The position numbers and the translations under genes were made by a program. DNA of 64,000 bases, from assembly GCA_040218735.1 (NCBI GenBank), contig JAVJQW010000055.1, positions 114,508 to 178,507 on the forward strand, written 5' to 3'. Source of the stretch: Deltaproteobacteria bacterium (GTDB lineage: Bacteria > Myxococcota > Kuafuiibacteriia > Kuafuiibacteriales > Kuafuiibacteriaceae). This document shows positions 13,512-28,582 of the stretch, piece after piece (positions within the stretch are counted from its first letter, which is position 1; each line of letters starts with the position of its first letter). The notes beneath the pieces are model-generated. The model was given only the letters and a program-made list of their open reading frames with translations. It ran no database searches and was not told the DNA's origin.

Positions 13512-13522
13512 GGAGCGACCCA

Positions 13523-14710
13523 GTGGTGCGTACGTCTCTCGTTCTGCTCGCGCTGTTCGTGTCCTCCAACGCGTACGCGCTGGAGATCGCGGGAGACGTA
13601 CGTGCGGACGGTCGGGTGTTCCTGGCCGCGCCGCGGCACCTCGGACAACGGCTCGGGACGGCGCCGTCGGTCGCGATCTCACCCATCGCTTCGGTGCAGA
13701 CCGACGACCTGACCCACACGCTGACGGTGCAACCCTTCTTGCGCGTGGACGCCGCCGACGCCGCGCGCACGCATTGGGATCTTCGGCAGGCGGACTATCA
13801 GTTCGCGACGGGTGGGTTCTCGTTCGGCGCGGGCATCGGGACGTTCACGTCCGGCGTCCTCGATACACACCGCGTCGTCGACGTCGTGAATCAGCGGGAT
13901 CTCGTCGAGGACCTCGACGGCAGCGTGAAGCTGGGGCAGCCGTACGTGGGTATCGGCTACGCGACGGGGCCGTGGGCGTTTACGTTCCAGTACCTGCCGT
14001 ATCACCGCAAACGGACGTTCCCGGGCGAGCGCGGTCGACTCCGGTTCCCGCTCCTGGTCGACGACGACGAGGTCCTCTACGAGTCCAAGCTGGGCCCCTG
14101 GCACCCGTCCTTCGCGGCGCGCGCTTCGGTCGCCACGGGGCCCTTCGACATCGGAGTTTCTGGGTTCTCGGGCTTGTCGCGCGAGCCGCGGTTCTTCGGT
14201 CAGATCTTCGATGCCTCGGCGGTGGTTCCGCAGTACGACTTCTTGCAGCAGGCGGCGGTCGACGCGCAGTGGACGCTCGACGCGTTGATCATCAAGGGGG
14301 AGGCCGCGGCGCGGTGGTGGTCGAAGGACCTCCGCTTCTTCGTCGCCGCGGGCGGCGGCGCCGAGTACCACTTCTACGATCTGTGGGGCACGGGCGCGGA
14401 CCTCGCGTTCCTCGCCGAGTACCACTTCGACGGACGCGCGCCGGACGCGCCGGTCGCGTTCTTCGACAACGACGTCGTCACCGGCCTGCGCCTCGCGATC
14501 AACGACACCGGCGACACCCAATTCATCGCCGGCGTCGTCCGCGACCTCGCGAACACCGCGACGTACGCCCGCGCGCAGATCTTCCGCCGCTTCGGCGACC
14601 GCTGGCGCGCGGCGCTCGAGGCGCGGATGTTCCTCGGTCAGGAAGGCCAGCTCGAGAGCGGCCTCCTCGACGACGACTACCTGCAGGGGAGCGTGGTCTA
14701 CTTCTTCTGA
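13523..14710 (+). CDS. Putative outer-membrane beta-barrel protein
   Basis: Signal peptide, VDVVNQRDLVED motif, alternating beta strands, C-terminal YFF; typical MMPL-LolA neighbour. Confidence 0.7.
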   Translation: MVRTSLVLLALFVSSNAYALEIAGDVRADGRVFLAAPRHLGQRLGTAPSVAISPIASVQTDDLTHTLTVQPFLRVDAADAARTHWDLRQADYQFATGGFSFGAGIGTFTSGVLDTHRVVDVVNQRDLVEDLDGSVKLGQPYVGIGYATGPWAFTFQYLPYHRKRTFPGERGRLRFPLLVDDDEVLYESKLGPWHPSFAARASVATGPFDIGVSGFSGLSREPRFFGQIFDASAVVPQYDFLQQAAVDAQWTLDALIIKGEAAARWWSKDLRFFVAAGGGAEYHFYDLWGTGADLAFLAEYHFDGRAPDAPVAFFDNDVVTGLRLAINDTGDTQFIAGVVRDLANTATYARAQIFRRFGDRWRAALEARMFLGQEGQLESGLLDDDYLQGSVVYFF

Positions 14711-14713
14711 GCG

Positions 14714-15049
14714 CTAGGTCTTCAGCGCTTCGAATCCATCCTTCGGGAATCCCACGAAGAGCTTCTTCCCCGAGCGAATCAGCGGCGCGCGCAGGTTGCC
14801 CGTGGGGCCCAGCATCGCGGCGACGATCGTGTCGCGGTCGTCCTTCTTCGGGTCGAAGCGAGTCAGCTTCGTGCCCTTGGCGACGTGGACTTCGGTCGCG
14901 CCGTCGAGCAGCTGCTCCGCGTAGTCCCGTCCGAGTTTCTTGCTCGCCGACACCGTCTCTTTCGGCTCGGCGGACGCTTGCGCGAGAAACTCCCGCGCTC
15001 GTTTGCAAGACGTTCAACCGTTGCGGTGGTAGTACCAGTCGATCTTCAT
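14714..15049 (-). CDS. ArsC/thioredoxin-fold (seleno)protein with in-frame UGA (UxxC)
   Basis: ATG at 15049 overlaps upstream stop; MKIDWYYHRNG-TGA(15014-15016)-TSCKRAREFL... continues in frame to LGPTGNLRAPLIRSGKKLFVGF. Confidence 0.85.
14980..14998 (-). promoter_or_regulatory. Candidate bacterial SECIS hairpin
   Basis: mRNA GCGCGGGAGUUUCUCGCGC begins 16 nt after the UGA; 7-8 bp stem (one G-U) with G in the apical loop. Confidence 0.6.
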
Positions 15050-16473
15050 CGCGCCGCCTCGTTAGCGGGTCGTGCTGAGATACGCAACCGATCACGTCGA
15101 AGCGCCGATCGCACGACCTTTCCGCGCTCGGAGCGAGGCAACACCTCCACGAGCTCGACGGAGGCCGGGACCATGTACACCGGCAGCGCGCGCCGGCACG
15201 CGGCCTGGATGTCCGCAGCTGAGAGCCGGGCGTTCGGCTCGAGGACCACGTGCGCCACGACGCGTTCCCCCGTCCGCCGATCCGGCACGCCGACCACCGC
15301 GCAGGCATGAACGCCGGGTAGGGCGTCGATCGCCGCTTCGATCTCCCGTGGGCCGACGCGGTGGCCTGCGACCGAGATCATGTCGTCGCGGCGCCCGACG
15401 ATGAAGAGGTAGCCGTCTTCGTCCAGGTAACCCATGTCGCGGGTTCGGAGCCACCCGTCCCGAACGACTTCGGCCGTCGCGGCCGGGTCACCCAGGTAAC
15501 CGGACATGACGTTGTCGCCGCGCGCGAAGATCTCACCGAGCACATGGGCCGGCGCCGGCGCGCCGTCGTCGACGCGCACCGAAATCTCGACGCCCGGGAT
15601 CGCGATACCCACCGAGCCGGGTTTTCGGTCGAGGTCTTCGGGCGGGAGATAACTCAGGCGCGCCGAAGCCTCGGTCTGCCCGTACATGCAGAAGAGCCGG
15701 GCGTTCGAGAACGCGCGGCGCACGCGGGTTGCGAGAGGCGTGGGCATCGGTGCACCGGCCTGGGTCACGTAGCGAAGGCTCGTGAGGTCGTAGGTTGCGA
15801 TGCCGGGGGTGTCCAAAATCCGCAGAAACGTCGAAGGCACCGCCGAAAGACCGGTGCAGCGGTAGGTCTGAATCGTGTCGAGGAGCGGTCCGACGAACGC
15901 GGCGGATCCGGCCTCGACGATCGTACCGCCCGCGTGGAGTTGAGTATTCAGGACCGAGAACCCATACGCGTGGTGGTTCGGGAGGCACGCCGCGACTCGA
16001 TCCTGATCGGACAGCCCGAGGTATTCCACGATGGCGCGGGTGTTGGCTTCGATGTTGGCGTGCGTGAGCATGACGCCCTTGGGCTCCGCCGTGGTCCCCG
16101 AGGTGTGAAAGATCATCGCGACGTCCGCGCCGACGTCACGACGCTGCGGTGTCCTTGGCTCGATCTGGTCCCGCGACCGCACGACGAGGCACGCCCCGGC
16201 GCGCTCGGCGATCTCCGCGTAGCGTTTATCGCCTTCCCCCAGCGGAATCGAGACGGCGCCCGCCATCGAGGCGCCGTAGGTCGCGACGAGGAAGTCCAGA
16301 CCCCGCGTCATGACGACGACACGATCGCCCGGACCGACGCCGAGCCGTGCGGCGAAGTCGCGGACCAGAGTGAGCAGCCGGCCGTAGGTCGTGACCTCGT
16401 CCGCGTCGACATGTGCGATGCGCTCGGGATCTTCGAGCGCGTGCCGAATGAGTGCGTCGTGAATCGCGGTCAT
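15046..16473 (-). CDS. Class I adenylate-forming enzyme (acyl-CoA ligase-like)
   Basis: IFHTSGTTAEPKGVMLTH, MYGQTEA, WLRTRDMG, GRRDDMI, LPRSERGKV. Confidence 0.9.
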   Translation of the reverse strand: MTAIHDALIRHALEDPERIAHVDADEVTTYGRLLTLVRDFAARLGVGPGDRVVVMTRGLDFLVATYGASMAGAVSIPLGEGDKRYAEIAERAGACLVVRSRDQIEPRTPQRRDVGADVAMIFHTSGTTAEPKGVMLTHANIEANTRAIVEYLGLSDQDRVAACLPNHHAYGFSVLNTQLHAGGTIVEAGSAAFVGPLLDTIQTYRCTGLSAVPSTFLRILDTPGIATYDLTSLRYVTQAGAPMPTPLATRVRRAFSNARLFCMYGQTEASARLSYLPPEDLDRKPGSVGIAIPGVEISVRVDDGAPAPAHVLGEIFARGDNVMSGYLGDPAATAEVVRDGWLRTRDMGYLDEDGYLFIVGRRDDMISVAGHRVGPREIEAAIDALPGVHACAVVGVPDRRTGERVVAHVVLEPNARLSAADIQAACRRALPVYMVPASVELVEVLPRSERGKVVRSALRRDRLRISARPANEAAR

Positions 16474-17294
16474 GGGTAGCTCCCTCCGGCCGGCACCACG
16501 GTCCCGATGTCGAGCGTGGCGCCGGCGGCGATTTTCGCGCGCGCGCCGACGATGACTCCGCGGTCGATGGTCACGCCGTGGCCGATGCGCGCGGCGTCGC
16601 CGATCTGGACGTCGCTGTGGAGCCAACACCCCGGACCGAGGCGAGCCGCGCCGCCGACTGTGCAGCCCGGACCAATGAGGCACTCCGCACCCACGATGCT
16701 GCCGTCCCCCACGTAGACGCCGGGGCCGACCTTCACACTCTCCAGGAGCTGCGCGCCCCGGCCGATTCGCACCGGCGCGAGGGTCAGCGTCCGGCCCATG
16801 GCCGCGTGACACGCGATGACGACGCCGGCGGAGATCTGCGCGTCGCGTTCGACGGCGATCAGGGAGGGGTCGAGCATCACCGGATCCGAGGAGCTCTGAA
16901 AGCCGAACGCGACGCGCGCGCCGAGCGCTCGGAGCATGAGCGTGCGCAGCGTGGTCGTCGAGAACATCAACGGTCGCCACACCGGGAGATACATGACGCG
17001 CATGAGCGCGAAGTGCAGGAGCCACACGATGACGCCACGGTCCTTCGGGACCGCGTAGATTCCTGCTTCGAGCTTCGGGAGGAGGTTTCGGACGAGCCAC
17101 GCCATGGCGCAGAGGCCGACGAGGTAGAGGAGCACACCGATGGGGAGGAGCAGCGCTTGGACGATCGGCGCCAGCGCCAGTCGTTGGTGTACGGCGACGA
17201 GCGCAGCGGCAGGGGGCCCCGCGATCGTCAAGAACATCGCGACGAAAAGTGCGTCGAACGCCACGTACATCGAGGTGGGGACATCGGCTTTCAT
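16470..17294 (-). CDS. Membrane-anchored hexapeptide-repeat (LbH) acyltransferase-like protein
   Basis: Two N-terminal TM helices, GIYAV...W, LRALGARV, long [IV]Gxxxx repeats. Confidence 0.75.
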   Translation of the reverse strand: MKADVPTSMYVAFDALFVAMFLTIAGPPAAALVAVHQRLALAPIVQALLLPIGVLLYLVGLCAMAWLVRNLLPKLEAGIYAVPKDRGVIVWLLHFALMRVMYLPVWRPLMFSTTTLRTLMLRALGARVAFGFQSSSDPVMLDPSLIAVERDAQISAGVVIACHAAMGRTLTLAPVRIGRGAQLLESVKVGPGVYVGDGSIVGAECLIGPGCTVGGAARLGPGCWLHSDVQIGDAARIGHGVTIDRGVIVGARAKIAAGATLDIGTVVPAGGSYP

Positions 17295-18790
17295 GACAGA
17301 GGCTCCTGCACCAGCAGACGGGGTTTGGTCTGGGCGTGTCCGCGTTTGAAGGCGAACGACGGGTGATCGGGCGCGACGCGGCGCGCGGTGAGCGGGTCGA
17401 GCGTCCCGTTTGCGACGTACCGTCGGTAGATCGGGTTGAGCTCTGCGAGTGCGAGCTCCACCGCCGAGACCTCTCCGGGCGCGATGGGTTCGTCCACGCA
17501 CAACTCGAGCCCGCGGCCCGACGCCGCAGGAGCGACGAGGCACGATCGATCGCGGGTGAGTTGCTTCAGCACCTCCACCAGCTCTGCTTCGCTGACGGAG
17601 GCGGGGCCGAGGCTGATCTGGTTGGCGCTCTTGTGCGAGAAATGAACGATGGGAGATCGGTGAAAATAGCCCGTGCACGTCACGACGTCCTGAAGCCGAT
17701 AGCGCACCAAACCCATCGCCGTGGTGAGTACGAGCTCGTAGGATTGCCCGGGTTCCAGCGCCCACATGGGGACGAGGTTCCGCGCGTGAGGCTCCATCCC
17801 CAGCGGGAGGAGCTCGAACACGTGGGCTCCGGGGTGGAGGGGGCCCCCGGGTGCGCCGTCGGCGCGCGGGACGTTCATCCACCCCTCGGTCGCGGAGTAG
17901 GTCGCGTCGACGAACGGGACGCCGCCGACCACGCGCCGGAGCGCGGGGAGCTGCAGACCGCACGTGGATGACTTCCAGCAGATGACCGCCTGGAGGGTGG
18001 GCCAGAGCGCTCCGAGGTCATCACCGCCGTCGAGGACCGAACGGATGAGATCGCGTCGAGCGTCGTCGAGTCGGGCCGGTGGGAGCGGCGCCGGCGGCTG
18101 CGCGCGGCCGGCGAGGATCGGCTCGTACAGGGCGCGGTTCGCGCCGAGGTTTTCGAAGAAACGAGAGATCGCCGCCGGGGTGATGCCGACCATCGCGCTC
18201 AGGTCGGTGGCGACGGCGTAGAGCGGCCCCCATCGCGAGAACGATTCTTCGCTCGCGAGGACCTCGATCGGGAACCCATACAACCTACGCAGGAACGCGG
18301 GGATCGTGCGGTAGTTGAAGTGACTGATGAGTCCGACTTCGACGCCGGAGGGCGAGAACTCAACGGGTTTCGTGGCCGCGAAGTACAGCACCGGACGTGA
18401 CAAGAGCTTCGGAAATCTGGAGGTGAGTCCTCGGAGGAAGGCCGGCGTCGTAGTCTGGAACTGGCGACGGTAGGTCGGTGTGATGGGGAAGAGTTTTCGG
18501 GGGCCTGTTGTTCCGGTGCTCTCGGACCAGTAGAGGATGGGTTCCGCCGACAGCTCGGAGCGCTCCTTCGCGAAGCTCCGCGTCAGCGCGTCGCGGTAGT
18601 CGTCGTACGTGGTGAGCGCGAAGTCGGACAGCGAGGCCGCCCCGCCGCGCCAGAAGGGCGAACGCCGAAGGACGCGCCACGTCTCGGCCCACACCCGCGC
18701 CTGTGCGCGTTCGGGGTTCTGACAGTCGCGCACGAAGGCGCGGTGCGGAAGGAGCGTGCTCGCGCGGAGCAGCGGGCGTGCGATGTTCAT
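17291..18790 (-). CDS. GH3 family acyl-adenylate/amido synthetase
   Basis: LTTYDDY, STGTTGPRKLFPIT, YSATEG, YELVLTTAMGLVRYRLQDVV, QTKPR. Confidence 0.85.
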   Translation of the reverse strand: MNIARPLLRASTLLPHRAFVRDCQNPERAQARVWAETWRVLRRSPFWRGGAASLSDFALTTYDDYRDALTRSFAKERSELSAEPILYWSESTGTTGPRKLFPITPTYRRQFQTTTPAFLRGLTSRFPKLLSRPVLYFAATKPVEFSPSGVEVGLISHFNYRTIPAFLRRLYGFPIEVLASEESFSRWGPLYAVATDLSAMVGITPAAISRFFENLGANRALYEPILAGRAQPPAPLPPARLDDARRDLIRSVLDGGDDLGALWPTLQAVICWKSSTCGLQLPALRRVVGGVPFVDATYSATEGWMNVPRADGAPGGPLHPGAHVFELLPLGMEPHARNLVPMWALEPGQSYELVLTTAMGLVRYRLQDVVTCTGYFHRSPIVHFSHKSANQISLGPASVSEAELVEVLKQLTRDRSCLVAPAASGRGLELCVDEPIAPGEVSAVELALAELNPIYRRYVANGTLDPLTARRVAPDHPSFAFKRGHAQTKPRLLVQEPLS

Positions 18791-18803
18791 GGTGTCGTCC
18801 TCC

Positions 18804-20159
18804 TCACAGCGGCCCGTTGCCGGGCGCGGCATCGGTGATGTGCGGTGCGCCGAGCACCGCGAACGCGCGCGCGAGCTCGGGTCGGGTAGCGTCGGGGTGG
18901 ATCGTCTTGTCCAAGACCCCGGCTGCGGCTGCGCCGCCCGCGGCTTCGTACAGCGGGTGGACTTCGCCGCGGACCGCGCGGGCAGCCGCACCGCCCATCG
19001 CTTCGAACCGCGTCGAAGGGTAGGCGAGCCGAAGCTGTCCGGGCAGCGCGAGGACGCTCCCGCCGCCGTACACCTTGCGGATCACGAGGGACACGAGCGG
19101 GGTTCGGCAGCGGGCGTACGCGTAGATGAGCTTCGCGCCGTGGAGGAGGAGCCCGCCCTGTTCCTGGTCCACGCCGGGGAGGAAGCCGGGGACGTCGACG
19201 AGCGTCAGGATCGGCAATCCGAACGCGCTGCAGAGCTGAACGAGGCGCGCGCCCTTACGCGAGGCTTCGCAGTCGAGCACGCCAGCGCGGTGCAGCGGTT
19301 GACTCGCGAGGATGCCGATCGAACGTCCGCCGAGGCGGGCGAGCCCGACGACGAGGTTCTTCGCGTACGCACCCTGGAGCTCCAGGAACGAGCCGCGGTC
19401 GACGATCTCCTCCACGATGGGGTGCACGTCGTACGGCTTTCGCTCCGAAGTGGGGAGAGCGGCTGCGATGCCTCGCGTCACGCGGTCGAGCGGGTCGTCG
19501 TTTGCGACCGCGTTGGCGGGGAGGTACGCGAGCAGGGCGCGCGCGGCGTCGATGGAGCTGGCTTCGTCGTCGGCGGTGACGTGCACGAGGCCGGTCGTGG
19601 TCGCGTGCATCGGGACGCCGCCGAGCGCATCGATCGCGACTTCACGCCCCGTCACGATCTGCGTGACGCGCGGCCCAGTGACGAAGCAGTAGCCGCCGTC
19701 CTCGTGACCGACGACCACGTCCTGCAGCGCCGAACCGTACGCGGCGCCGCCGACGCACAGGCCGAGCACCACGCCGACCTGCGGCACGAGCCCCGACAGG
19801 CGCGCGGTCGCGGCCAGCACCTGCGCGAACGCCTCCATCGCGGCCGGGCCTTCTTCGATACGGACGCCGTCCGAGTCGAACAGCGTGACGACGGGGGTAC
19901 GTCGCCGCTCGGCGAGCTCGAGGAGCCGAAGGATCTTCTGGCCGCCGCTCACGCCGAGCGCTCCGCGCTGCACCATCGGGTCGTGCGCGTAGGCGGCGAC
20001 GGTGCGGCCGTCGATGCGGCCGAACCCGGCGATGACGCCGTCTTCACCGTCCCGTCGCGCGCCCACTTCGACGAAGCTCTCCGCGTCGAAGAGGCGCTCG
20101 ATGCGTTCGCGGACGAGGAGCCGTCCGAGGCGCTTGTGGCGGCGCTCTGCGGCGCTCAT
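18804..20159 (-). CDS. Acyl-CoA carboxylase carboxyltransferase (beta) subunit
   Basis: DGVIAGFGRIDGR, DSDGVRIEEG, GGAAYG, FVTGP, LVDVPGFLPGVDQE, RKVYGGG. Confidence 0.88.
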   Translation of the reverse strand: MSAAERRHKRLGRLLVRERIERLFDAESFVEVGARRDGEDGVIAGFGRIDGRTVAAYAHDPMVQRGALGVSGGQKILRLLELAERRRTPVVTLFDSDGVRIEEGPAAMEAFAQVLAATARLSGLVPQVGVVLGLCVGGAAYGSALQDVVVGHEDGGYCFVTGPRVTQIVTGREVAIDALGGVPMHATTTGLVHVTADDEASSIDAARALLAYLPANAVANDDPLDRVTRGIAAALPTSERKPYDVHPIVEEIVDRGSFLELQGAYAKNLVVGLARLGGRSIGILASQPLHRAGVLDCEASRKGARLVQLCSAFGLPILTLVDVPGFLPGVDQEQGGLLLHGAKLIYAYARCRTPLVSLVIRKVYGGGSVLALPGQLRLAYPSTRFEAMGGAAARAVRGEVHPLYEAAGGAAAAGVLDKTIHPDATRPELARAFAVLGAPHITDAAPGNGPL

Positions 20160-20407
20160 GCCGTCGCTCCCACGCGCTCTTCGAGGAACAGCACGAGCTT
20201 CTCGACGGTGTCGACGCCGTGGTACGCGCTGGGTTCGGCTTTGTACCCGAAGTCCTTCTGTAGCAGCAGGATGAAGTCGACAACGTCGAGGCTGTCGAGC
20301 CCCAACGTCGCGGTGAAGTTTGCGTCGTCTTCGATGACTTCTCGGTCGACGGAGAAGTCATCGGTGAGGATTCGAATCACGTGGGATCGGATGTCGTTTC
20401 GAGTCAT
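20156..20407 (-). CDS. Acyl carrier protein
   Basis: 83 aa, acidic, LGLDSLDVVD phosphopantetheine motif. Confidence 0.9.
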   Translation of the reverse strand: MTRNDIRSHVIRILTDDFSVDREVIEDDANFTATLGLDSLDVVDFILLLQKDFGYKAEPSAYHGVDTVEKLVLFLEERVGATA

Positions 20408-21420
20408 TTCGATTCTCCTGGGATGCGAATGAGTGCAGCGCCCGCGCAGAAGCCGGCGCCGCCGCCGACCAGCAACACGTTCGCGCCCGGCCGCAGGCGA
20501 GACGAGGTCAGCGCCTCGTCGGTCGCCACGGCCAAAGAAGCGGCGGACATGTTCCCGGTGCGGTGGACGTTGACGAACACCTTGGCGCTGGGGATTCGCA
20601 GGTAGCGCGCGAGGCGATCGAGGATCAGGCGGTTGGGTTGGTGCGGGACGACGAGGTCGATGTCGTCGAAGGTCAGGCGCATCGCGTCGAGGAGGGTGTT
20701 GGCCGCCTGACTCATGCCCTCCAGTGCGGTGAGGAACACCCGCGGACCATCGACCATCTTCAGGAAGTGTTCGCGGCGCGCGGCGGTGTCGGCCGTGGTC
20801 GGTCGACGACTGCCGCCCGCGGGGACGTGGATTGCCTCGGCGCCTTCGCCGTCGGTCATCAGGTGCACGGCGAGGAGCCCTTCACCGACGGGGCCGCGCT
20901 CGAGGAGCAGGCCTCCGGCGCCGTCGCCGAAGAGCGCGAAGGTCCCTCGGTCCGTGGGGTCGATGAGTCGCGAGCGAATGTCCGCCGCGAGGACGAGGAC
21001 GCGCTCGTCACCGGTGAGGATGGAGCGCGCAGCGAGGTCGAGGCCGAAGAGGAACCCACCGCACGCCGCGGCGACGTCGAAGGCCGGCGCGGGCGCGAGC
21101 CCGAGACCGCGTTGGACGAAACACGCGCAGGCGGGGATCGGGTGGTCGGGCGAGGAGGTGCCGACGACGAGGCGATCGACATTTGCGACACCGGCGCGGT
21201 CCAGCACCGTGCGGCCGGCCTCGATGGCGAGGTCGCTCGTGGCCTGGTCGGGCGCGGCCCACCGCCGCTCGCGGATGCCCGTGAGCTTTTCGATCTGCGC
21301 CGCCGTGAGCGGCGCGTCGGCTCGGGCCGCGAGCTCGTCGGTCGTGACGACGCGACCCGGGAGGTAGGAGCCGGTCGAGCGGATACGCAGGCCGGCGTGC
21401 TCGGCGATCAGGAGGCTCAT
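20404..21420 (-). CDS. 3-oxoacyl-ACP synthase III (FabH-like), canonical Cys-His-Asn
   Basis: TGSYLP, TGIRERR, DVAAACGG, LFGDGAG, VPHQPN, TGNMS. Confidence 0.9.
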   Translation of the reverse strand: MSLLIAEHAGLRIRSTGSYLPGRVVTTDELAARADAPLTAAQIEKLTGIRERRWAAPDQATSDLAIEAGRTVLDRAGVANVDRLVVGTSSPDHPIPACACFVQRGLGLAPAPAFDVAAACGGFLFGLDLAARSILTGDERVLVLAADIRSRLIDPTDRGTFALFGDGAGGLLLERGPVGEGLLAVHLMTDGEGAEAIHVPAGGSRRPTTADTAARREHFLKMVDGPRVFLTALEGMSQAANTLLDAMRLTFDDIDLVVPHQPNRLILDRLARYLRIPSAKVFVNVHRTGNMSAASLAVATDEALTSSRLRPGANVLLVGGGAGFCAGAALIRIPGESK

Positions 21421-21656
21421 CGACTCGTCTCCTGCGTCCGTTGGACGAGTCGAACGAGCGCACCGATCGATTCGAACGCCGCGGGTGTCACGTCGCGCGC
21501 GCTCAATCGGACGCCGAAGTCGTCCTCGATCGCGCCGTGCACGAGGACGATGCCGAGGGAGTCGAGCCCGATGGGTTGGTCGTCGCCGAGCGCGGTGACG
21601 TCGAGCGTCGCGTGACGCGAGACGATTCGCGCGAGCCGGTCGCGGATGTCAGACAT
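21417..21656 (-). CDS. Second acyl carrier protein
   Basis: 79 aa from MSDIRDRL; IGLDSLGIV, IEDDFGV, FESIGAL. Confidence 0.85.
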   Translation of the reverse strand: MSDIRDRLARIVSRHATLDVTALGDDQPIGLDSLGIVLVHGAIEDDFGVRLSARDVTPAAFESIGALVRLVQRTQETSR

Positions 21657-22698
21657 GGATGCCTCCCACGGAGTAGATCGCGGCGCCCCACGTGAGGCCG
21701 CCGCCGACGGCGCCGAGGAGCAGGTGCTCGTCGGCCCTGAACAACGGACGCCGATGGTGCAGCGCGAGGAAGAGGCCCGCCGCGCCGCAGTTGCCGTGGT
21801 CGGCGACGCCGTCGAATGTGCAGTCGTGGGCCACACCGAGCGCCGCAGACATCCGTTCGATCGCGGGGCGGCTGCTCTGCTGCGGGATGAAACAGGCGAT
21901 GTCTTCCACGCCGATCGTCGCCGATTCCATCGCGGTCGATGCGGCGTCGGCGCAGCGCAAGGTTCCTTGCTCGAGGAACGCCTCGGGTGCGGCGCGCAGC
22001 CAGTAAGCGCCGGCGTCGATGCGGTCGTGGGTGCAGGGGAAGGGGGCGCCCCCGCCCATCGCGTCGATCGAGCCGTCCGCGTCGAACGTCGATGCCCTCA
22101 GGCCGCCACGGTCGTGAGGGACGATGACCACGGCACCTGCGCCGTCGCCGAGCGCCAGCGCCGCGAGCGGTGCGTCCGGGGGGATCATCAGGGAGAAGGC
22201 GTCGGCGCCGACGACCGCGACGGGCTGGCGCGTCGACGTCGCGAACAGGCAGCCCTGTACGAAGGCGAGGAGGCCCCCCGTGCAGCCGGCCCGAACGTCG
22301 AAGGCCGCGCACCGCGCGCCGACGCGGCCTGCGATCGCGGGCGCGTTGGCGCCCGTGATGCGCGCGGGCGTGCTGGTCGACGTGATGATCGCACCCAGCG
22401 CGCCCGACGACAGGGCGGCGTCGTTCAGCGCCTGCTCGAGCGCGCGGGCGCCGAGGTCGACAGTGCTCGGGGCGTCGTCACGGAATGGCTCGCCGACGGC
22501 GTGCACCCAGTGCCGGTTCGCGACGCCGAGGCGCTCGAAGATCAACGCGTCCATCGCGTCGGCGTCGCGTGCGCCGCGCGGGCCGGTCGCGCCAAGGCGC
22601 TCGACGACCTCGCGGTTGGAGATCGGCGGCCCCGGGAGGTACGCACCGGTCCCGGCGATGCGGCAGCGCGCCGGCGTGTCGATCGTCAGCGCGGTCAT
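21649..22698 (-). CDS. FabH-like ketosynthase III with His replaced by Gln
   Basis: GTGAYLP, DVRAGCTGG, LGDGAGA, FIPQQSS (normally PHQ), HGNCG, GGGLTWG. Confidence 0.85.
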   Translation of the reverse strand: MTALTIDTPARCRIAGTGAYLPGPPISNREVVERLGATGPRGARDADAMDALIFERLGVANRHWVHAVGEPFRDDAPSTVDLGARALEQALNDAALSSGALGAIITSTSTPARITGANAPAIAGRVGARCAAFDVRAGCTGGLLAFVQGCLFATSTRQPVAVVGADAFSLMIPPDAPLAALALGDGAGAVVIVPHDRGGLRASTFDADGSIDAMGGGAPFPCTHDRIDAGAYWLRAAPEAFLEQGTLRCADAASTAMESATIGVEDIACFIPQQSSRPAIERMSAALGVAHDCTFDGVADHGNCGAAGLFLALHHRRPLFRADEHLLLGAVGGGLTWGAAIYSVGGIHV

Positions 22699-24344
22699 GA
22701 CGAGGTCTCCGCGACGAGCGCGCGACACTGCGCGCGCTGCTTCTTGCCGCTCGACGTCTTCGGGAGCGTGTGCGGCGCGGCGAGCACCACGCGTTGCACC
22801 GCGACGCCGACGTGCCGGAGCACGGTCTGCGTGATGCCGCGTTCGAGCGCCCGACGTTCGTTCGGATCCGAGAGTCGCGTCTCGACGGCGATCATCAGCG
22901 CGTCGGCGCCGCGTCGGTCGTCGAAGGCGCTCAGGGCATAGGCGTTGCCCTTGCGGACGCCGGGGAGTGACTCCACGGTTGCTTCGATGTCCTCGGCGTA
23001 GAAGTTACGGCCGCGAACGATGAGTACGTGTTTGGAGCGGCCGATGACGAAGAGCTCACCTCGCTCGTCGAAGTAGCCCAGATCGCCGGTTCGCAACTCA
23101 CCGTCGCGAATGACTTCGTGCGTGGCGGATGGGTCACCGAGGTAACCGGCCATCACCGAGGGGCTGCGGACCGTGATCTCACCGACGCTCCGCGGCTCGA
23201 GCTCGACGCCGTTCGGGTCGCGCACGGCGACGAGGTTTCCGGTCAGCGGCGCGCCGACGGAGACGACCTCCACCGCGTCCGCGGATTCGGTCGCCTGGAC
23301 GGCACGCGGGTGGCTCGCGTCCTGGAGCGCCTCACGCAGAATCCGCTGAACGCGGAGGCCGTCGCCCGGGCGTCCGAGCGAGACGCCGACGCAGCACTCC
23401 GCGAGGCCGTAGGCGCTGCAGAAGCTGGCAGGGTCGAGACCGGCGCGAGCAAAACGATCGTAGAACGCGCGGATGACTTCGGGCTGAATGGGTTCACCGC
23501 CCGAGACGACGAGCCGGAGCGCTCCAAGGTCGAGGCCGCTGAGGACGTCGTCGTCGACGCGCCGGGTGCTGAGTCCGAACGCAAAGCTCGGCGCGGTGGT
23601 GACGGTCGCACGGTGACGCGAGACCGCACGCCACCACGCCGCGGGCTCTTGAATGAAACGCGCCGGCGACATGAGTACGTGCTCGGCCGGTCCGAAGAGC
23701 GCCTGGAACAGCGCGCCGATCAGACCGAAGTCGTGATAGAGCGGCAGCCACGTGACGGCGGTGTCCGTGGGCCCGACCTGCGTGCGCTCGGCGAGAGCGC
23801 GGCAGTTGGCCATGAGGTTTCTCTGCAGCAGGACCGCAGGCTTCGGGAGCGACGTGCTGCCGGAGGTGCACTGGATCAGGCCGATGTCGTCCGGGCTCGG
23901 GTCCTGGTCGACGCCCGGCTCCGCGGTGAGCGTCGCGACGTCACAAATTCCGCGCTCCCCGAAGTTGGCCTCGATCGCCGCGCCGATCGTCGCGTCGGTC
24001 ACGACGAAGCGGGCGCCCGTGGCGCGGGTGATGTGGTCGAGGAGCCGCCGGTAGTCGTCGAGTCGCGCCATCGCAACCGGGGGATACGCAGGCGCGACGG
24101 CGCCGCCCGCGAGCATCACGCCGAAGAGCATCTCGACGAGCTCGAAGCTCGTATCGAGCACCACGATCACCGCGTCGCCGCGCTCCAGGCCTCGACGCCG
24201 GAGCGCCTCGGCACGGCGGCGCGCGCCCTCGTAGATCTCGCCGTACGTTCGGCGCTCCTCGTGGCCGTCGGTGCCGGCGATCACGATGCCCTGGTCACTT
24301 CGTGCGGCGCGTCGCAGCGCGGCGCAGAGGTTGTTCGGCTCCAT
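22695..24344 (-). CDS. Fatty acyl-AMP ligase (FAAL)
   Basis: IQCTSGSTSLPK, WLPLYHDFGLIG, YGLAE, LRTGDLG, GRNFYAEDIE, LPKTSSGKKQR. Confidence 0.9.
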   Translation of the reverse strand: MEPNNLCAALRRAARSDQGIVIAGTDGHEERRTYGEIYEGARRRAEALRRRGLERGDAVIVVLDTSFELVEMLFGVMLAGGAVAPAYPPVAMARLDDYRRLLDHITRATGARFVVTDATIGAAIEANFGERGICDVATLTAEPGVDQDPSPDDIGLIQCTSGSTSLPKPAVLLQRNLMANCRALAERTQVGPTDTAVTWLPLYHDFGLIGALFQALFGPAEHVLMSPARFIQEPAAWWRAVSRHRATVTTAPSFAFGLSTRRVDDDVLSGLDLGALRLVVSGGEPIQPEVIRAFYDRFARAGLDPASFCSAYGLAECCVGVSLGRPGDGLRVQRILREALQDASHPRAVQATESADAVEVVSVGAPLTGNLVAVRDPNGVELEPRSVGEITVRSPSVMAGYLGDPSATHEVIRDGELRTGDLGYFDERGELFVIGRSKHVLIVRGRNFYAEDIEATVESLPGVRKGNAYALSAFDDRRGADALMIAVETRLSDPNERRALERGITQTVLRHVGVAVQRVVLAAPHTLPKTSSGKKQRAQCRALVAETSS

Positions 24345-24359
24345 GCTGCCGAGGACGAG

Positions 24360-24375
24360 TGCAACGGAGGTGCCA
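24360..24375 (-). promoter_or_regulatory. Sigma-54 promoter upstream of the FAAL operon
   Basis: Minus strand TGGCACCTCCGTTGCA matches TGGCAC-N5-TTGC, 15 nt before the ATG. Confidence 0.75.
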
Positions 24376-24445
24376 CCGGTAGCTCGTGGCGAGCGGCGCC
24401 GTCGTGTGCAGAACGCTTTACACCTTGTGTACGCGCCTGCGCGGC

Positions 24446-25216
24446 TTACAGGAGGTTCGTGAGGTGCAGCCCCCCGTCGATCGGGAGCACCGCGCCCGTG
24501 ATCTGACCGGCGACGGGGGAGCACAGGAAGGTGACGAGCCGCGCTACGTCTTCGTTCTTCGACAGGGCGCGCGTCGCGGCCGCGCGTTTCATCTTCCGGC
24601 GCGCGGCGGGGTCGTCGTTGAGCTCCGCGAGGCGTTCGTTGTCGACGAAGCCCGGCGCGACGATGTTCGCGGTGACGCCGTAACGTCCGAAATCGAGCGC
24701 GATGTTGCGCACGAGCCCTTCGAGCGCCGCCTTGACCGTCGAGTTGATCGGCGTCTTCGGCGCGCCCATGCGCCCGAGGTGCGAACCGACCACCACCACC
24801 CGTCCGTCGCGCGCCGCCATCATCTCCTCCAACGCCGGCCCCAGGAGCGCGAAGGGCGCGCGGAGGTCGGTGTTCAGCGAGACGTCGAGGTCCTGCCGGA
24901 ACACGCTGTGCACCTTCGCGTAGCGGTGCATGTGGCCGTGGCTCAGCACGACGATCGTCGGTGCTTCGCCGAGCGCCTCCGTGGCGCGCGCAACGACACC
25001 GGACGCTGCGTCCCAGTCGCTCAAGTCGGCAGGGATGACGTGGGCTTCGCCGCCGCGTTCACGGATCTCGGCGGCGGTCCGGTCGAGGTTTGCCTCGCTC
25101 CGCGCGACGAGCGCGACGCGCACCCCTTCGTCGGCGAGCGCGAGCGCGATCGCCCGGCCGATGCCGCGGCTCGCGCCGGTGATGACGGCGGTTCGTCGTT
25201 CGAGATCGAGGAACAT
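24446..25216 (-). CDS. SDR oxidoreductase (FabG-like) with atypical NxxxK active site
   Basis: TGASRGIG, VTANIVAPG, ITGAVLPIDGG; INSTVK in place of YxxxK. Confidence 0.85.
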   Translation of the reverse strand: MFLDLERRTAVITGASRGIGRAIALALADEGVRVALVARSEANLDRTAAEIRERGGEAHVIPADLSDWDAASGVVARATEALGEAPTIVVLSHGHMHRYAKVHSVFRQDLDVSLNTDLRAPFALLGPALEEMMAARDGRVVVVGSHLGRMGAPKTPINSTVKAALEGLVRNIALDFGRYGVTANIVAPGFVDNERLAELNDDPAARRKMKRAAATRALSKNEDVARLVTFLCSPVAGQITGAVLPIDGGLHLTNLL

Positions 25217-25229
25217 GCGCCGGTGCGAA

Positions 25230-25260
25230 TGCACGAAGCACGCCGGGCACGGTTCCTGCT
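25230..25260. promoter_or_regulatory. Back-to-back divergent sigma-54-like promoters (SDR and MMPL)
   Basis: Minus CGGCGTGCTTCGTGCA (25245-25230) and plus GGGCACGGTTCCTGCT (25245-25260), both GG-N10-GC, 13-15 nt before their starts. Confidence 0.55.
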
Positions 25261-25275
25261 CTTGGTGGGCGGACG

Positions 25276-27627
25276 ATGGAGCGCGCTGCGCATGCGATCG
25301 CCACGACGATCGTCGATCACCCGAAGCTGTGTCTGAGCGCCGCGCTCGTCGTCACGGTGGTGGCGGGGGTGGCGGGGGTGGCCGCGCCCGGGCTTCGGTT
25401 CGACTCGTCCTATCGCTCGATGCTCCCGCCGGACGAGCCGCGGATCCTCGAGGCGGACGCCGTGCGCGCCCGCACGGGGGGGCAGCGGCAGCTGGTGATC
25501 GCCGTGTCCGGGCCCGACGCCGAGCGGCGTGCGGCGTTCGGGCGGGCGCTCGCGGACGACATCGAGGCCCTACCTCAGATTCGCTGGGTCGACGCCGAGC
25601 TCCCGGTCGCGTGGTTCGAGGCGCGTGCGCTGTGGCTGCTCGAGGAAGACGAGCTCGAGGCGATCGTGGAGGCGGTGGGCGACGCTCTGGATCGCGAGGC
25701 CGCGGCCCGTCACCCCTTGAGCATCGCGCTCGACGCGGACTCGACGGCGGAGGACGCGTGGGCTCGCGTTCGACAACGCATCGACGCGAACCGCAGCGAG
25801 CTCCATCGTATGCACCTCGAGAGCCGCGACGGGCGCTACACCTTCGTCGTCGTCACCCCGACCGTGACGGTCATGGACTTCGAGGGGTCGAACGCTCTCT
25901 TCAGTGGAATCGAACGTGCGGTGCGTTCCCTCCGCGAAGTGTACCCCGACGTCGAGGTTCGGTACGCGGGGAAGTTCCAGCTCGCGCGCGACCAACACGC
26001 CGTCCTCACGGCGGACATGCGGCGCGCGTCCCTGCTCGCGTTCGCGTTGTGCCTCATCGTCATCGCGCTCGTCACGCGCCGCCTCGCGGCTCCGTTGATC
26101 GTCGTGGGCGGTGTGGTGCTCGGACTCGTCTGGACCCTCGCCGCCGCGCGGCTCCTCGTCGGTTCTCTCAACCTCATCAGCGCGTTCCTCGTGCCGGTGC
26201 TGATCGGCCTCGGCGCGGACTTCGGCATTCACCTCGTGGTCCGCTACGGGCAGGAGCGGGCGGAGCGCCCGGCGCGCGCCGCACGGATCGCGACCGTCGC
26301 CGGTCTGCTCCCGCCTTCGTTCGTCAGCGCACTCACCACGGCCGGCACGTTCGCGGTGCTCACGCTCTCCGACTTTCGCGGCTTCTCGGAGCTGGGGCTC
26401 GTCGCGGCCGTCGGCGTGTTGCTCACCTTCGTCGTGAGCTTCCTCGCGGTGCCTTCCATGCTCGGGCGCTTCGGCGGCGCTACGACGCCGGTGTCCGGAG
26501 GCGCACGTGTCTTCCCGCGTCGCGCGGCCGTGCTCGTCGTGATCGCCCTATCCGTCGGCGCGCTCTTCGGCGCCGTCCGCGCGACCGACATCCGCTTCGA
26601 CAACGACTACCGCCGCCTGAGGACCGACTCCGACGAGGTCGAGTTCTTCCGCTACGTCGACGAGAACCTCGGCCTTCGATTCGATCCGACGGTGGTGGTG
26701 GTCGACGATCTGGACGCGGCGCGCGCCGTCCACCGGGCCATCGCCGCCGAGGGGGTGGGGCGCGTGTTCTCGATCGTCGATCTCCTCCCGCGAACGTCAC
26801 CGCGGCGCCGCGAGCTCTTGGACGAGCTGCAGGCGTTGCTGTCCCGGCGTGCCTACGACGGGCTCCGAGGCGACGACGCCGAGCTGCTCGCACGCGCGCG
26901 CGCGCAGGTCGCGCAGGCGCCGTGGTCGGTCGACGAGATCCCGGCCACGGTGCGTCGCCGCCTCATGACGTTGGACGGGGAGGGGTGCACGGTCCTGTTT
27001 TGGCCCGACACACCGATCACCTCCGACGCCGCCGCGTGGGCCTGGGCGGAGCGCCTCGATCGAATCGGCGCGCAGCTCGACGCGGAGGGCGTCACGCACC
27101 TGATGGCGACGGAGACGTTGACGCCGTCGTGGGTGCACCAGCGCATCGTCGCCGACGCGCCGAAGACGATCACGCTCGCGGCGCTCGTCGTTCTGATGAT
27201 CACCGCGGCCTCGATGCGGACGGTGCGGAGGACGCTGCTCGTCTGCGTCCCGCTGGTCGTCGCCGTGACGGGGACGCTCGGGGTGATGGTCGCGACCGGC
27301 CTCGACCTCGACATGTTCAACCTCATCGTCCTGCCCACCGTGTTGGGCATCGGCATCGACAACCTCGTGCACCTCGTCCACCGCTACGAGCGCTGCGGAC
27401 CGGGCTCGATGCCGTTCGTGTGGAAGAGGACGGGGCAGTCGGTGCTCCTCACGTCCGTCACCACCGCGATCGGCTTCGGCGCGATGCTCGTGGCGCACCA
27501 CGCCGGGCTCAGGAGCCTCGGCACGTTGGCGTTGATCGCGATCGGCGCCACGCTGCTCGCGGCGGCCGTGTATCTCCCGGCGCTGTTGGTGATGATCGAT
27601 CGCGCAGCGCCGGATCGAGTACGCTGA
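25276..27627 (+). CDS. MMPL family transporter (HpnN-like)
   Basis: LIGLGADFGIH, SALTTAGTF, LGIGIDNLVH, TSVTTAIGFG. Confidence 0.88.
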   Translation: MERAAHAIATTIVDHPKLCLSAALVVTVVAGVAGVAAPGLRFDSSYRSMLPPDEPRILEADAVRARTGGQRQLVIAVSGPDAERRAAFGRALADDIEALPQIRWVDAELPVAWFEARALWLLEEDELEAIVEAVGDALDREAAARHPLSIALDADSTAEDAWARVRQRIDANRSELHRMHLESRDGRYTFVVVTPTVTVMDFEGSNALFSGIERAVRSLREVYPDVEVRYAGKFQLARDQHAVLTADMRRASLLAFALCLIVIALVTRRLAAPLIVVGGVVLGLVWTLAAARLLVGSLNLISAFLVPVLIGLGADFGIHLVVRYGQERAERPARAARIATVAGLLPPSFVSALTTAGTFAVLTLSDFRGFSELGLVAAVGVLLTFVVSFLAVPSMLGRFGGATTPVSGGARVFPRRAAVLVVIALSVGALFGAVRATDIRFDNDYRRLRTDSDEVEFFRYVDENLGLRFDPTVVVVDDLDAARAVHRAIAAEGVGRVFSIVDLLPRTSPRRRELLDELQALLSRRAYDGLRGDDAELLARARAQVAQAPWSVDEIPATVRRRLMTLDGEGCTVLFWPDTPITSDAAAWAWAERLDRIGAQLDAEGVTHLMATETLTPSWVHQRIVADAPKTITLAALVVLMITAASMRTVRRTLLVCVPLVVAVTGTLGVMVATGLDLDMFNLIVLPTVLGIGIDNLVHLVHRYERCGPGSMPFVWKRTGQSVLLTSVTTAIGFGAMLVAHHAGLRSLGTLALIAIGATLLAAAVYLPALLVMIDRAAPDRVR

Positions 27628-27734
27628 TTCGGACGTCGCCAGCACACCGCCCAAGCGCTTACGCTGGATGCGAAGCTCGAAGCGGCGCGCGAGGCCCTCG
27701 CCCACGGGGTGCTCGACGTGGGATACGACGGCGC

Positions 27735-28550: not shown

Positions 28551-28577
28551 CATACACATAAGCATAGACTTATTAGT
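28547..28577 (+). promoter_or_regulatory. Sigma-70-type promoter with overlapping ArsR operator
   Basis: TTGACA 28547-28552, TATTAG 28571-28576; inverted repeat ATAAG-N6-CTTAT 28558-28573. Confidence 0.65.
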
Positions 28578-28582
28578 CGGGC

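Follow-up and report, generated by a model that had tools for sequence, protein, structure and literature searches.

A carrier-protein-based lipid operon of Myxococcota with a putative single-repeat form of the poly-lysine synthetase membrane domain

Introduction

What kind of product is made by a closely packed run of genes that brings together a fatty acyl-AMP ligase (FAAL), two FabH-type condensing enzymes, two acyl carrier proteins (ACPs), a GH3-family amido synthetase and a membrane-anchored beta-helix protein? The question is raised by a 64,000-nucleotide stretch of DNA, referred to here as the window, from a Deltaproteobacteria bacterium of the Myxococcota order Kuafuiibacteriales (GenBank assembly GCA_040218735.1, contig JAVJQW010000055.1, positions 114,508 to 178,507 of the forward strand). 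In it, ten minus-strand genes, hereafter the operon, run from 24344 down to 14714. An earlier note, made from the DNA letters alone, had read these ten genes together with an upstream reductase gene and a divergent MMPL transporter gene as a discrete pathway for an exported N-acylated or head-to-head lipid, and had not recognised them as a characterised pathway.

Soil and marine bacteria commonly contain amino-lipids and other envelope lipids free of phosphorus, and many of these are without known biosynthetic genes. We report here that the operon is a real and conserved carrier-protein-based lipid operon without previous characterisation. Because it is packed, flanked by exporters, recurrent in several phyla and unmatched to described pathways, its product is probably an envelope lipid of a kind that has not been described before. 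With a probability of roughly 0.55, we favour the reading that its enzymes assemble on carrier proteins an acyl-amide (amino-)lipid that is not a phospholipid and that is exported, a product predicted from the genes. New here are the proposed identity of the membrane-anchored beta-helix protein as a repeat of the poly-lysine synthetase domain, its predicted homotrimer, the fusions that join it to a FAAL and an ACP, and the precedent that the enzyme OlsH offers for the GH3 enzyme.

Results

Gene content and packing of the operon

Genes were called from a listing of open reading frames (ORFs) with inspection of start codons, and families were assigned by Pfam and NCBIfam scans (Table 1). In the direction of transcription, the operon encodes the FAAL, a first condensing enzyme (KSIII-a), ACP1, a second condensing enzyme (KSIII-b), ACP2, a carboxyltransferase (CT), the GH3 enzyme, a protein with two transmembrane (TM) helices followed by a left-handed beta-helix (LbH), termed TM-LbH, an AMP ligase, and an ArsC-family selenoprotein. 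Stop and start codons overlap at eight of the nine junctions, seven times by 4 nt (ATGA type) and once by 8 nt, and the ninth junction is a 13-nt spacer containing GAGGAGG. Upstream of the FAAL gene lies a gene for a short-chain dehydrogenase/reductase (SDR), with 101 nt between the SDR stop and the FAAL start. The family scans of the genes in 10343..29933 detected neither a dehydratase nor an enoyl-reductase domain. All twelve genes named in the earlier note, the upstream SDR and the divergent MMPL among them, were recovered at the same coordinates by the ORF calls and family scans; the family assignments given there held against Pfam, NCBIfam and PDB relatives, and the overlapping stop and start codons were confirmed at the eight junctions described above.

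TM-LbH resembles one repeat of the Pls/PosA membrane domain

TM-LbH is a rare protein: when 5.8 billion proteins were searched with a word index, 73 matches were returned, 32 of them at E below 1e-15, and the remaining matches are LpxD-like. All 24 aligned members of the family match TIGR02353, which describes the C-terminal domain found in the epsilon-poly-L-lysine and delta-poly-L-ornithine synthetases (Pls and PosA), and the match spans TM2, the linker and the first turns of the beta-helix. For the window protein, residues 18-211 align to positions 497-682 of the 695 positions of the model, at 54 bits against a cut-off of 423, the protein being free-standing and of a single repeat. LpxD and LpxA models, the best-scoring named relatives of the soluble part, match only the beta-helix of the family, and the 83.6 bits of the window protein on PRK00892 lie far below the cut-off of 207. 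Because the TIGR02353 match includes TM2 and the linker, the homology to Pls/PosA exceeds shared hexapeptides, and TM-LbH is, to judge by these alignments, a single repeat of the Pls/PosA membrane condensation (polymerisation) domain.

The published account of PosA provides a structural frame for this comparison. According to the cited sections of PMC10522769, the model of PosA's C-terminal domain consists of three repeats, packed about an approximate threefold axis; in each of them a pair of TM helices precedes two core helices, a strand and a left-handed beta-helix of five turns. No structure exists, in the same account, for the Pls/PosA membrane domain. An AlphaFold2 model of TM-LbH (pLDDT 78) has helices at residues 7-39 and 43-71, a strand, two more helices and then the beta-helix, and shows one PosA-type unit, in agreement with the published model.

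A homotrimer of TM-LbH was predicted with a score of 0.87, against 0.00 for the best of three controls; across the trimer runs at least 94% of the contacts were shared, and the pLDDT of the partner chains was at least 90. When the score was calibrated, 20 of 30 proteins with structures solved as pairs attained the mark, as did 1 of 23 whose structures were solved as single chains, a calibration that used two copies rather than three and holds only roughly for TM-LbH. In the predicted interface, TM1 packs against TM2 of the neighbouring chain, together with residues flanking H163, which is invariant in the family, as are D14, R117 and D142. TM-LbH is predicted to form a homotrimer on this basis, and the LbH part of the prediction may pass through likeness to solved LbH trimers.

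Fusions join TM-LbH to FAAL and carrier domains

An exhaustive profile search identified 236 TM-LbH-related proteins at E up to 1e-30. Among the best 150 of these, most are about 200-310 aa long and have a single matched stretch. Eleven of the relatives outside this type were scanned with Pfam: three (P0114, P0117 and P0143) consist of AMP-binding, PP-binding and TM-LbH domains in that order, one (P0173) has an acyl-CoA dehydrogenase domain between the AMP-binding and PP-binding domains of the same arrangement, and one (P0169) carries an SDR followed by three TM-LbH units. Another three, of about 680 aa, have three matched stretches, and for the last three Pfam gave nothing further. The same arrangement occurs in a genome that also carries much of the operon (genome G049, locus L031), where a single open frame at L031:5343-9122 encodes a FAAL-type AMP-binding domain, a PP-binding domain and a C-terminal TM-LbH. 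These fusions are the strongest evidence that TM-LbH would take its acyl donor from a FAAL-loaded carrier. By their domain content, the L031 frame and the five multidomain proteins named above (P0114, P0117, P0143, P0173 and P0169) appear to form an unstudied family of lipid-type Pls-like enzymes.

The source genome encodes only one paralogue of TM-LbH. It is 35% identical and its gene lies directly after an MMPL/HAE3 gene (contig C39, L013:6891-10051). This gene adjoins others for cytochrome c oxidase and heme O synthase and belongs to no biosynthetic cluster.

The same families recur in three phyla

Related loci were sought with a pattern derived from an 11-row alignment of TM-LbH, scanned over 185,579 species genomes. 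The 11 loci obtained come from metagenome-assembled genomes (MAGs), four of Acidobacteriota/Vicinamibacterales, one of Sericytochromatia and six of Myxococcota type. Searched by tblastn with the window proteins, eight of the 11 loci contain KSIII genes, seven the AMP ligase and five the SDR; the FAAL, the CT with ACP2, and GH3 were each found at three. No KSIII match was obtained by tblastn at L002, L007 or L008, the contigs of L002 and L008 being 8.1 and 5.1 kb long.

Gene order varies among these loci. At L011, FAAL-CT-ACP2 is followed by TM-LbH on the opposite strand and then by KSIII-b-ACP1-AMP ligase-KSIII-a, with an SDR orthologue (44% identical) nearby. SDRs lie beside KSIII-b in L001, L003 and L004, and the AMP ligase stands between KSIII-a and ACP1 in L009 and L011. 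The adjacency of ACP2 and CT is kept in L008, L009, L011 and L031, and FAAL-CT-ACP2 is contiguous in three of these (L008, L011 and L031).

Of 300 other genomes of the phylum, 7 encode an orthologue of the operon's GH3 (E up to 1e-40). At one of these loci, L031 in Myxococcota, GH3 shares a 15-kb region with TM-LbH, two FAALs, CT and ACP2, as well as KSIII-b, the AMP ligase and KSIII-a, and this genome carries nearly the full set. Of the other GH3 loci, L032 contains both KSIII genes, one contains a FAAL, one a distant SDR, and three GH3 alone. Within the same order, 11 of 19 other genomes have only a paralogue type 28-36% identical to TM-LbH, and eight have no match at E up to 1e-10; the matches in the 11 are probably the paralogue type seen on contig C39.

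Because the same families co-occur elsewhere in different orders, their grouping appears to be more than chance. The earlier note had named a lack of conserved synteny as grounds for abandoning its proposal of a discrete lipid pathway; what was found is the same families together at loci in three phyla and a near-full set in one Myxococcota genome, and the proposal is supported both by this co-occurrence and by the family assignments.

The Acidobacteriota loci also carry a type I polyketide synthase (PKS), a radical SAM/SPASM protein, an FtsX permease and a LolA_like protein, and in L001 the LolA_like gene adjoins the TM-LbH gene. In Vicinamibacterales-type loci, as in that Acidobacteriota MAG (L001:4870-6279 and 11686-18334), the KSIII/SDR/GH3/TM-LbH set stands beside the radical SAM/SPASM gene and the type I PKS (KS-AT-DH, then ER-KR-ACP), with FtsX and LolA_like genes between them.

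Activating, condensing and carboxylating enzymes

The best PDB relatives of the operon's first ligase (3pbk, 7r7f, 3kxw, FadD23 and FadD32) are FAALs or FAAL-type loading domains, and FAAL-type NCBIfam models score best for it, yet below their cut-offs (386 versus 600 for PRK09192). From these relationships, the 549-aa ligase appears closer to FAALs than to CoA ligases. For the AMP ligase, the best PDB relatives are feruloyl- and fatty-acyl-CoA synthetases, 4CL and FadD13. An assignment of the AMP ligase as an amino-acid adenylation domain, which would make the operon a true Pls-like adenylation-thiolation-condensation system, was rejected: CoA ligases are the enzymes most closely related to it, and in its A4 region the sequence is HHAYGFSV instead of the FDxS-type motif. 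Gene neighbourhoods make two loading arms apparent, one of FAAL with ACP2, which always lies beside CT, and one of the AMP ligase with ACP1, the two being adjacent in L009 and L011.

KSIII-b scores above the cut-off of the FabH-type model NF006829 (Table 1), its Cys-His-Asn triad is intact in the alignment, and its orthologues are 40-57% identical. KSIII-a scores below the same cut-off (145.8 versus 249 bits). Its best PDB relatives are FabH enzymes, with no protein named OleA among the 37 matches at E up to 1e-5, and by sequence it is best regarded as a divergent KSIII-like enzyme. In an alignment of both KSIII types with their orthologues, at the positions of the FabH triad, Cys and Asn are invariant and His is present in all except the window KSIII-a, which reads PQQ, with Gln for the triad His, where seven of seven orthologues read PHQ.

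The CT matches both halves of the Carboxyl_trans family (PF01039, 363.8 bits). The beta subunits of acetyl-CoA carboxylase (ACC) and propionyl-CoA carboxylase (PCC) are nearest to it, and its best PDB relatives are such subunits, AccD5 and AccD6 included, at E from 1.5e-97 to about 1e-81.

The GH3 enzyme and the OlsH precedent

The GH3 enzyme scores 61.6 bits on PF03321 and 61.7 bits on PF23571, against a cut-off of 23.6 for both, and 10 of 10 PDB matches are plant GH3 enzymes. Three nucleotide-binding motifs are given for the family in the cited sections of PMC12493201: SSGTSxGxxK, YxSSE and YRxGD. All three are recognisable when the operon's enzyme is aligned to OsGH3.8, where STGTT-GPRK, YSATE and YRLQD stand opposite SSGTSAGERK, YASSE and YRVGD. 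In the same account, OlsH is the sole characterised bacterial GH3; it forms N-acyl-ornithine from fatty acid, ATP and ornithine, coupling the fatty acid to the alpha-amine of ornithine (PMC12493201). The OlsHI route is, according to a 2026 review (PMC12971839), known only from the planctomycete Singulisphaera acidiphila, and homologues elsewhere may use other amino acids.

A GH3 paralogue of the source genome lies on contig C24 (L014:5928-13902), beside an enolase-superfamily gene, a MenE-like AMP ligase, UbiD/UbiX-like genes and a divergent MBOAT gene. The locus is a system different from the operon and may be a second GH3-based acylation system in this genome.

Export and envelope context

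In addition to the divergent MMPL gene, a second exporter set on the plus strand (MMPL/HAE3, LolA_like and a secreted-looking 395-aa protein, the last possibly an outer-membrane protein) converges on the 3' end of the operon. Paralogues of all three genes occur on contig C4 of the source genome, where that of the 395-aa protein lies beside another MMPL/LolA_like pair, and paralogues of MMPL and LolA_like occur on contig C23. This recurrence suggests that the trio is a reusable envelope lipid-export module; by analogy, the MMPL and LolA-like genes fit export of an envelope lipid. About 17 kb from the operon, at 44845-47746, lie a STAS-MlaE fusion gene and an MlaD-domain gene of Mla-type lipid transport.

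The terminal selenoprotein gene

The earlier note had identified the last gene of the operon as a selenoprotein, and several findings bear it out. A single in-frame TGA lies at 15016..15014, within the motif G-U-T-S-C, and with this codon read through the product matches NF041106 ('ArsC family (seleno)protein') at 117 bits, the cut-off being 85. The source genome (11.6 Mb in 70 contigs) encodes SelB (341 bits, above cut-off) and contains tRNA-Sec. The 66 nt from the TGA onward form a hairpin with an energy like that of shuffled sequence (z-score 0.25), which gives no usable evidence of a selenocysteine insertion sequence (SECIS) element. The ArsC-family selenoprotein was not found at any of the related loci compared, whether TM-LbH loci or GH3 loci, and is treated as a local addition to the operon.

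The locus and its surroundings

The GC content of the window is 0.65-0.71 in 2-kb windows. Because a 42-kb contig from a different metagenome spans 10000..28000 unbroken, with 278 changed letters and 10 gaps, the locus is intact in a second sample. Metagenome runs from sponge, aquaculture and biofloc material contain near-identical DNA, which hints that the habitat is marine or aquatic. One metatranscriptome run contained 0.05 of the sampled words, and among the RNA contigs listed eight, of 158-400 nt, fall in MMPL-a, LolA_like, KSIII-a, the SDR 3' end with the SDR/FAAL spacer, MMPL-b and the region downstream of MMPL-b. Since DNA can occur in such RNA libraries, these contigs are weak evidence and do not prove transcription of the operon. 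A promoter and terminator scan of 13400..28000, uninformative in this GC-rich DNA, gave no promoter-like site, and the terminator-like sites were all inside genes.

Genes farther out show no sign of belonging to the system. Upstream of the exporter trio lie two GMC-family FAD oxidoreductase genes (3117-5033 and 5668-7566), and downstream are GST and ArsR genes, an AHSA1-domain gene and others. A 1115-aa protein whose sole domain match is a C-terminal AAA ATPase (33596-36943) and a multihaem cytochrome of c554/MtrC-like type (38122-39483) are unrelated to the operon.

Table 1. Features of the operon and its flanks, with window coordinates, strand and supporting matches.
Feature	Coordinates	Strand	Evidence
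MMPL/HAE3 transporter, RND superfamily, 791 aa	10343..12718	+	Pfam MMPL E 5e-32; TIGR00921 HAE3 E 7e-42
LolA_like outer-membrane lipoprotein/lipid carrier-like protein, 278 aa	12675..13511	+	Pfam PF17131 E 3e-57
Secreted-looking protein, 395 aa	13523..14710	+	Signal-peptide-like N-terminus; C-terminal ...VVYFF; no Pfam/NCBIfam family
ArsC-family selenoprotein, 111 aa, last gene of the operon	14714..15049	-	NF041106
AMP ligase, ANL superfamily, acyl/aryl-acid type, 475 aa	15046..16473	-	Pfam AMP-binding and AMP-binding_C
TM-LbH, membrane-anchored hexapeptide protein, 274 aa	16470..17294	-	Two N-terminal TM helices and left-handed beta-helix; TIGR02353
GH3-family acyl-acid amido synthetase, 499 aa	17291..18790	-	Pfam GH3 and GH3_M
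CT, acyl-CoA carboxylase beta-subunit type, 451 aa	18804..20159	-	Pfam Carboxyl_trans E 2e-108
ACP2, 83 aa, DSL phosphopantetheine site	20156..20407	-	PP-binding E 7e-10; acyl carrier protein models; motif LGLDSLD
KSIII-b, FabH-type condensing enzyme	20404..21420	-	NF006829 292.8 bits (cut-off 249)
ACP1, 79 aa, DSL site	21417..21656	-	PP-binding E 2e-5; weak AmcB-type ACP match; motif IGLDSLG
KSIII-a, divergent FabH-like enzyme	21649..22698	-	Pfam ACP_syn_III and ACP_syn_III_C
FAAL, 549 aa	22695..24344	-	Nearest PDB relatives FAALs
FabG-like SDR	24446..25216	-	adh_short_C2 E 9e-46; 3-oxoacyl-ACP reductase models score best
Divergent MMPL/RND lipid transporter, HpnN/BstA-like, 783 aa	25276..27627	+	Pfam MMPL and sterol-sensing domain; TIGR03480 HpnN E 2e-76, below cut-off

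Discussion

From the gene content we infer the substrates, the order of the steps, the role of the CT, the acceptor and the destination of the product as follows. FAAL would adenylate a long-chain fatty acid and load it onto an ACP, and the CT would then act on the ACP-bound chain, an action suggested by the conserved pairing of ACP2 and CT. ACP1 would receive another acid from the AMP ligase. A Claisen condensation by the two FabH-type KSIII enzymes would join the two arms, or one arm with malonyl-ACP (the simplest scheme), and the SDR would reduce the 3-keto group; with no dehydratase or enoyl reductase encoded among the scanned genes, the chain would stop as a 3-hydroxy, possibly 2-alkyl-3-hydroxy, acyl-ACP. 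A membrane homotrimer of TM-LbH would move this ACP-bound acyl chain to an amine (or hydroxyl) acceptor, a step that would mirror the action of the Pls/PosA domain on carrier-bound amino acids and that of LpxA/LpxD on 3-hydroxyacyl-ACP. GH3 would adenylate a carboxylate and couple an amino acid to form a second amide, as OlsH does with fatty acid and ornithine, and the MMPL transporters and the LolA-like protein would carry the product to the outer envelope. Both the 'N-acylated' and the 'head-to-head' lipid envisaged in the earlier note are compatible with the evidence. No description of this gene combination was found in the full-text literature, subscription journals and MIBiG lying outside the search, and in this respect the earlier impression of an unfamiliar pathway stands.

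Several observations weigh against this scheme. The CT resembles subunits of biotin-dependent acyl-CoA carboxylases, and its action on an ACP thioester is only predicted; we know of no precedent for carboxylation of an ACP-bound long chain by an enzyme of this class, and the scan of window ORFs, which did not extend to the remainder of the genome, detected neither biotin carboxylase (BC) nor biotin carboxyl carrier protein (BCCP). Because the triad His of KSIII-a is replaced by Gln, one of the two condensing enzymes may be impaired or repurposed; decarboxylative condensation may no longer be within the reach of the window enzyme, whose function may be limited to that of a partner subunit or one that transfers acyl groups. 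The substrates of GH3 enzymes are free acids, and no thioesterase that could release such an acid is encoded in the operon. GH3 is also present in only 3 of the 11 TM-LbH loci, and at three of the seven GH3 loci, on contigs of about 8-10 kb, it stands without any other gene of the cluster; for both reasons it may be an accessory tailoring step. Since no TM-LbH orthologue above 36% identity was found in the 19 other genomes of the order that were searched, the operon is an accessory, patchy trait and not a core membrane pathway, and the neighbours of L009, a MATE pump and a TonB receptor, fit a secreted metabolite as well as a membrane lipid. Finally, the structural model of TM-LbH has good confidence in its helices and low confidence in the beta-helix (pLDDT 53-65). 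When it was compared with the PDB by Foldseek, no entry matched at E up to 0.001 and only weak rows for LbH acetyltransferases appeared, and for this reason no structural assignment is made beyond the sequence evidence.

Among the alternatives, a mycolic-acid-like head-to-head lipid without an amino-acid core is the most probable, unlikely as we consider it. Here the CT would alpha-carboxylate the FAAL-loaded acyl-ACP2, a KSIII enzyme would join to it a second chain delivered by the AMP ligase and ACP1 to give a 2-alkyl-3-ketoacyl-ACP, and the SDR would reduce this product; the acceptor to which TM-LbH would pass the resulting branched 3-hydroxy acid would be a sugar, a polyol or a lipid, and export would fall to MMPL. 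Such a pathway would be a dissociated analogue of FadD32/AccD4/Pks13/CmrA/MmpL3, overlapping with the acyl-amide scheme in how the chain is built and differing from it in the acceptor and in the lack of a central role for GH3. The parts seem to map one-to-one onto the mycolate condensation (FAAL, AccD-type CT, two carriers, condensing enzyme, ketoreductase and MMPL), and the adjacency of ACP2 and CT in four related loci, the contiguity of FAAL-CT-ACP2 in L008, L011 and L031, and the absence of GH3 from most TM-LbH loci all favour it. These points have to be set against the FabH type of the KSIII enzymes and the absence of an acyltransferase domain, and against the difficulties over CT noted above, namely a carboxylation of long-chain acyl-ACP for which, to our knowledge, this enzyme class offers no precedent and the lack of BC and BCCP among the scanned window ORFs. 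The CT is, moreover, absent from those loci of Acidobacteriota in which TM-LbH, the SDR and the two KSIII genes are all retained, and the nearest homologues of TM-LbH, Pls and PosA, form amide bonds according to the cited sections of PMC10522769.

It is rather improbable that the product is a secreted specialised metabolite, such as a surfactant, signal, siderophore-like amphiphile or antibiotic (for example an N-acyl amino acid or a lipo-dipeptide), released through MMPL; this proposal differs from the acyl-amide envelope lipid only in the destination of the product. It draws on the patchy distribution, with no close orthologue in the 19 genomes of the order and GH3 in 7 of 300 genomes of the phylum, on the MATE, MFS and MacB/HlyD pumps, TonB receptor and TetR regulators that neighbour related loci, and on a shuffled gene order that is typical of biosynthetic gene clusters. 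However, the LolA_like carriers and HpnN-like RND proteins point to envelope lipid traffic, and the TM-LbH paralogue, which is not part of a cluster, is paired with MMPL beside genes of respiration.

We consider it very improbable that the operon encodes an Ole-, lipstatin- or nocardiolactone-type route to a beta-lactone or olefin, with head-to-head condensation of two chains by two thiolase-fold enzymes, reduction by the SDR and closure of the beta-lactone by the AMP ligase, like OleC. Two KSIII-like genes, an SDR and an AMP ligase do recur in L001, L003, L004 and L011, a combination that seems to resemble LstABCD, NltABCD and OleACD. Yet the best structural relatives of KSIII-a are FabH enzymes, no protein named OleA being among its 37 matches at E up to 1e-5, KSIII-b is above the FabH-type cut-off, the AMP ligase is closest to CoA ligases among its PDB relatives, and the ACPs, FAAL, CT, GH3 and TM-LbH would be left unexplained. 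That the operon holds no joint pathway and is a chance packing of lipid-metabolism neighbours is scarcely credible: all of the families are common and the ArsC-like selenoprotein is not conserved with the rest, but the stop/start overlaps at eight of nine junctions, the co-occurrence of the same families in three phyla with differing gene orders, and the physical FAAL-ACP-TM-LbH fusions all speak against it.

Within the acyl-amide scheme, a more specific proposal can be formulated, which we regard as speculative and, taken as a whole, quite unlikely. TM-LbH would be a free-standing, homotrimeric, ancestor-like form of the poly-lysine synthetase condensation domain that has been recruited to make lipids; it would link a branched 3-hydroxy (mycolic-type) chain, built on ACP by FAAL, CT, KSIII and SDR, through an amide to the side-chain amine of a diamino acid, and GH3 would acylate the alpha-amine. 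Myxococcota and Acidobacteriota would then have an outer-membrane lipid of a new class, N-acylated twice and free of phosphorus.

More generally, the operon is a testable candidate for a further route to phosphorus-free lipids beside the GH3 route to ornithine lipid. It links activation by a FAAL, FabH-type condensation with an AccD-type CT outside the mycolata, and the membrane domain of poly-lysine synthetases. If the prediction is true, a trimer of a 274-residue, single-repeat protein would be an easier object for studying amide-bond formation by the Pls domain, and the proteins in which FAAL, ACP and TM-LbH are fused suggest that Pls-like enzymes that form lipids are a broader family, as yet unstudied.

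Comparison with known systems

Outer-membrane lipid clusters of the aryl-polyene and flexirubin type resemble the operon in their dissociated carrier-based chain building and in their LolA-like and MMPL/RND export genes. The operon differs in having no dehydratases, KS/CLF pair or aromatic starter enzymes, and GH3, CT and TM-LbH are not known to be part of those clusters. OleABCD, LstABCD and NltABCD likewise bring two thiolase-fold condensing enzymes, an SDR and an AMP-dependent ligase together; in contrast to those systems, the operon's KSIII enzymes group with FabH, it has no OleB-type hydrolase, and it is based on ACP and not on CoA.

In Corynebacteriales, FadD32, Pks13, AccD4, CmrA and MmpL3 carry out the condensation and export of mycolic acids. 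A FAAL, an AccD-type CT, two carriers, a condensing enzyme, a ketoreductase and an MMPL exporter are common to both, and the operon's list of parts seems by analogy to parallel the mycolate system, the likeness to Ole, Lst and Nlt being less close. The mycolate system employs the type I PKS Pks13, whereas the operon has dissociated FabH-type KSIII enzymes, lacks acyltransferase and thioesterase domains, and lies in a context that looks Gram-negative by its LolA_like gene. GH3, TM-LbH and the second AMP ligase are additional in the operon.

LpxA and LpxD of lipid A synthesis use 3-hydroxyacyl-ACP donors and are trimers with active sites at the interfaces. They share with TM-LbH the left-handed beta-helix with hexapeptide repeats, and they are without its two N-terminal TM helices and linker; conversely, the UDP-sugar-binding domain was not found in TM-LbH. 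The operon is not an Lpx enzyme set.

The OlsH/OlsI system of S. acidiphila (PMC12493201, PMC12971839) is alike in having a GH3 in a lipid operon, a second acyl-transfer enzyme and a likely amino-acid-containing, phosphorus-free lipid as its product, as far as the cited sections describe it. The operon's GH3 is likened to OlsH by the published motifs and description given there, and the FAAL, two KSIII enzymes, two ACPs, CT and TM-LbH have no counterpart in the OlsHI operon as it is described in those sections of PMC12493201. Conversely, neither an OlsI-type alpha/beta-hydrolase nor an OlsG methyltransferase was found among the scanned genes around the operon and, lacking an OlsI-type hydrolase, it is not an OlsHI operon.

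With Pls and PosA, the operon has its membrane component in common. Those synthetases have three tandem repeats and an amino-acid adenylation domain, whereas TM-LbH has one repeat, presumably forms a homotrimer and is accompanied by a fatty acyl-AMP ligase; the window genes are separate, and nothing suggests a polymer product. By reason of the single repeat, the FAAL-type activator and the separate genes, the operon is not a Pls-type synthetase. TM-LbH is nonetheless homologous to one TM-TM-LbH repeat of their C-terminal domain, as that domain is described in the cited sections of PMC10522769. The presumed donor in both systems is a carrier-protein thioester, and the adenylation-thiolation-membrane-domain layout of Pls and PosA is copied by the FAAL-ACP-TM-LbH fusions.

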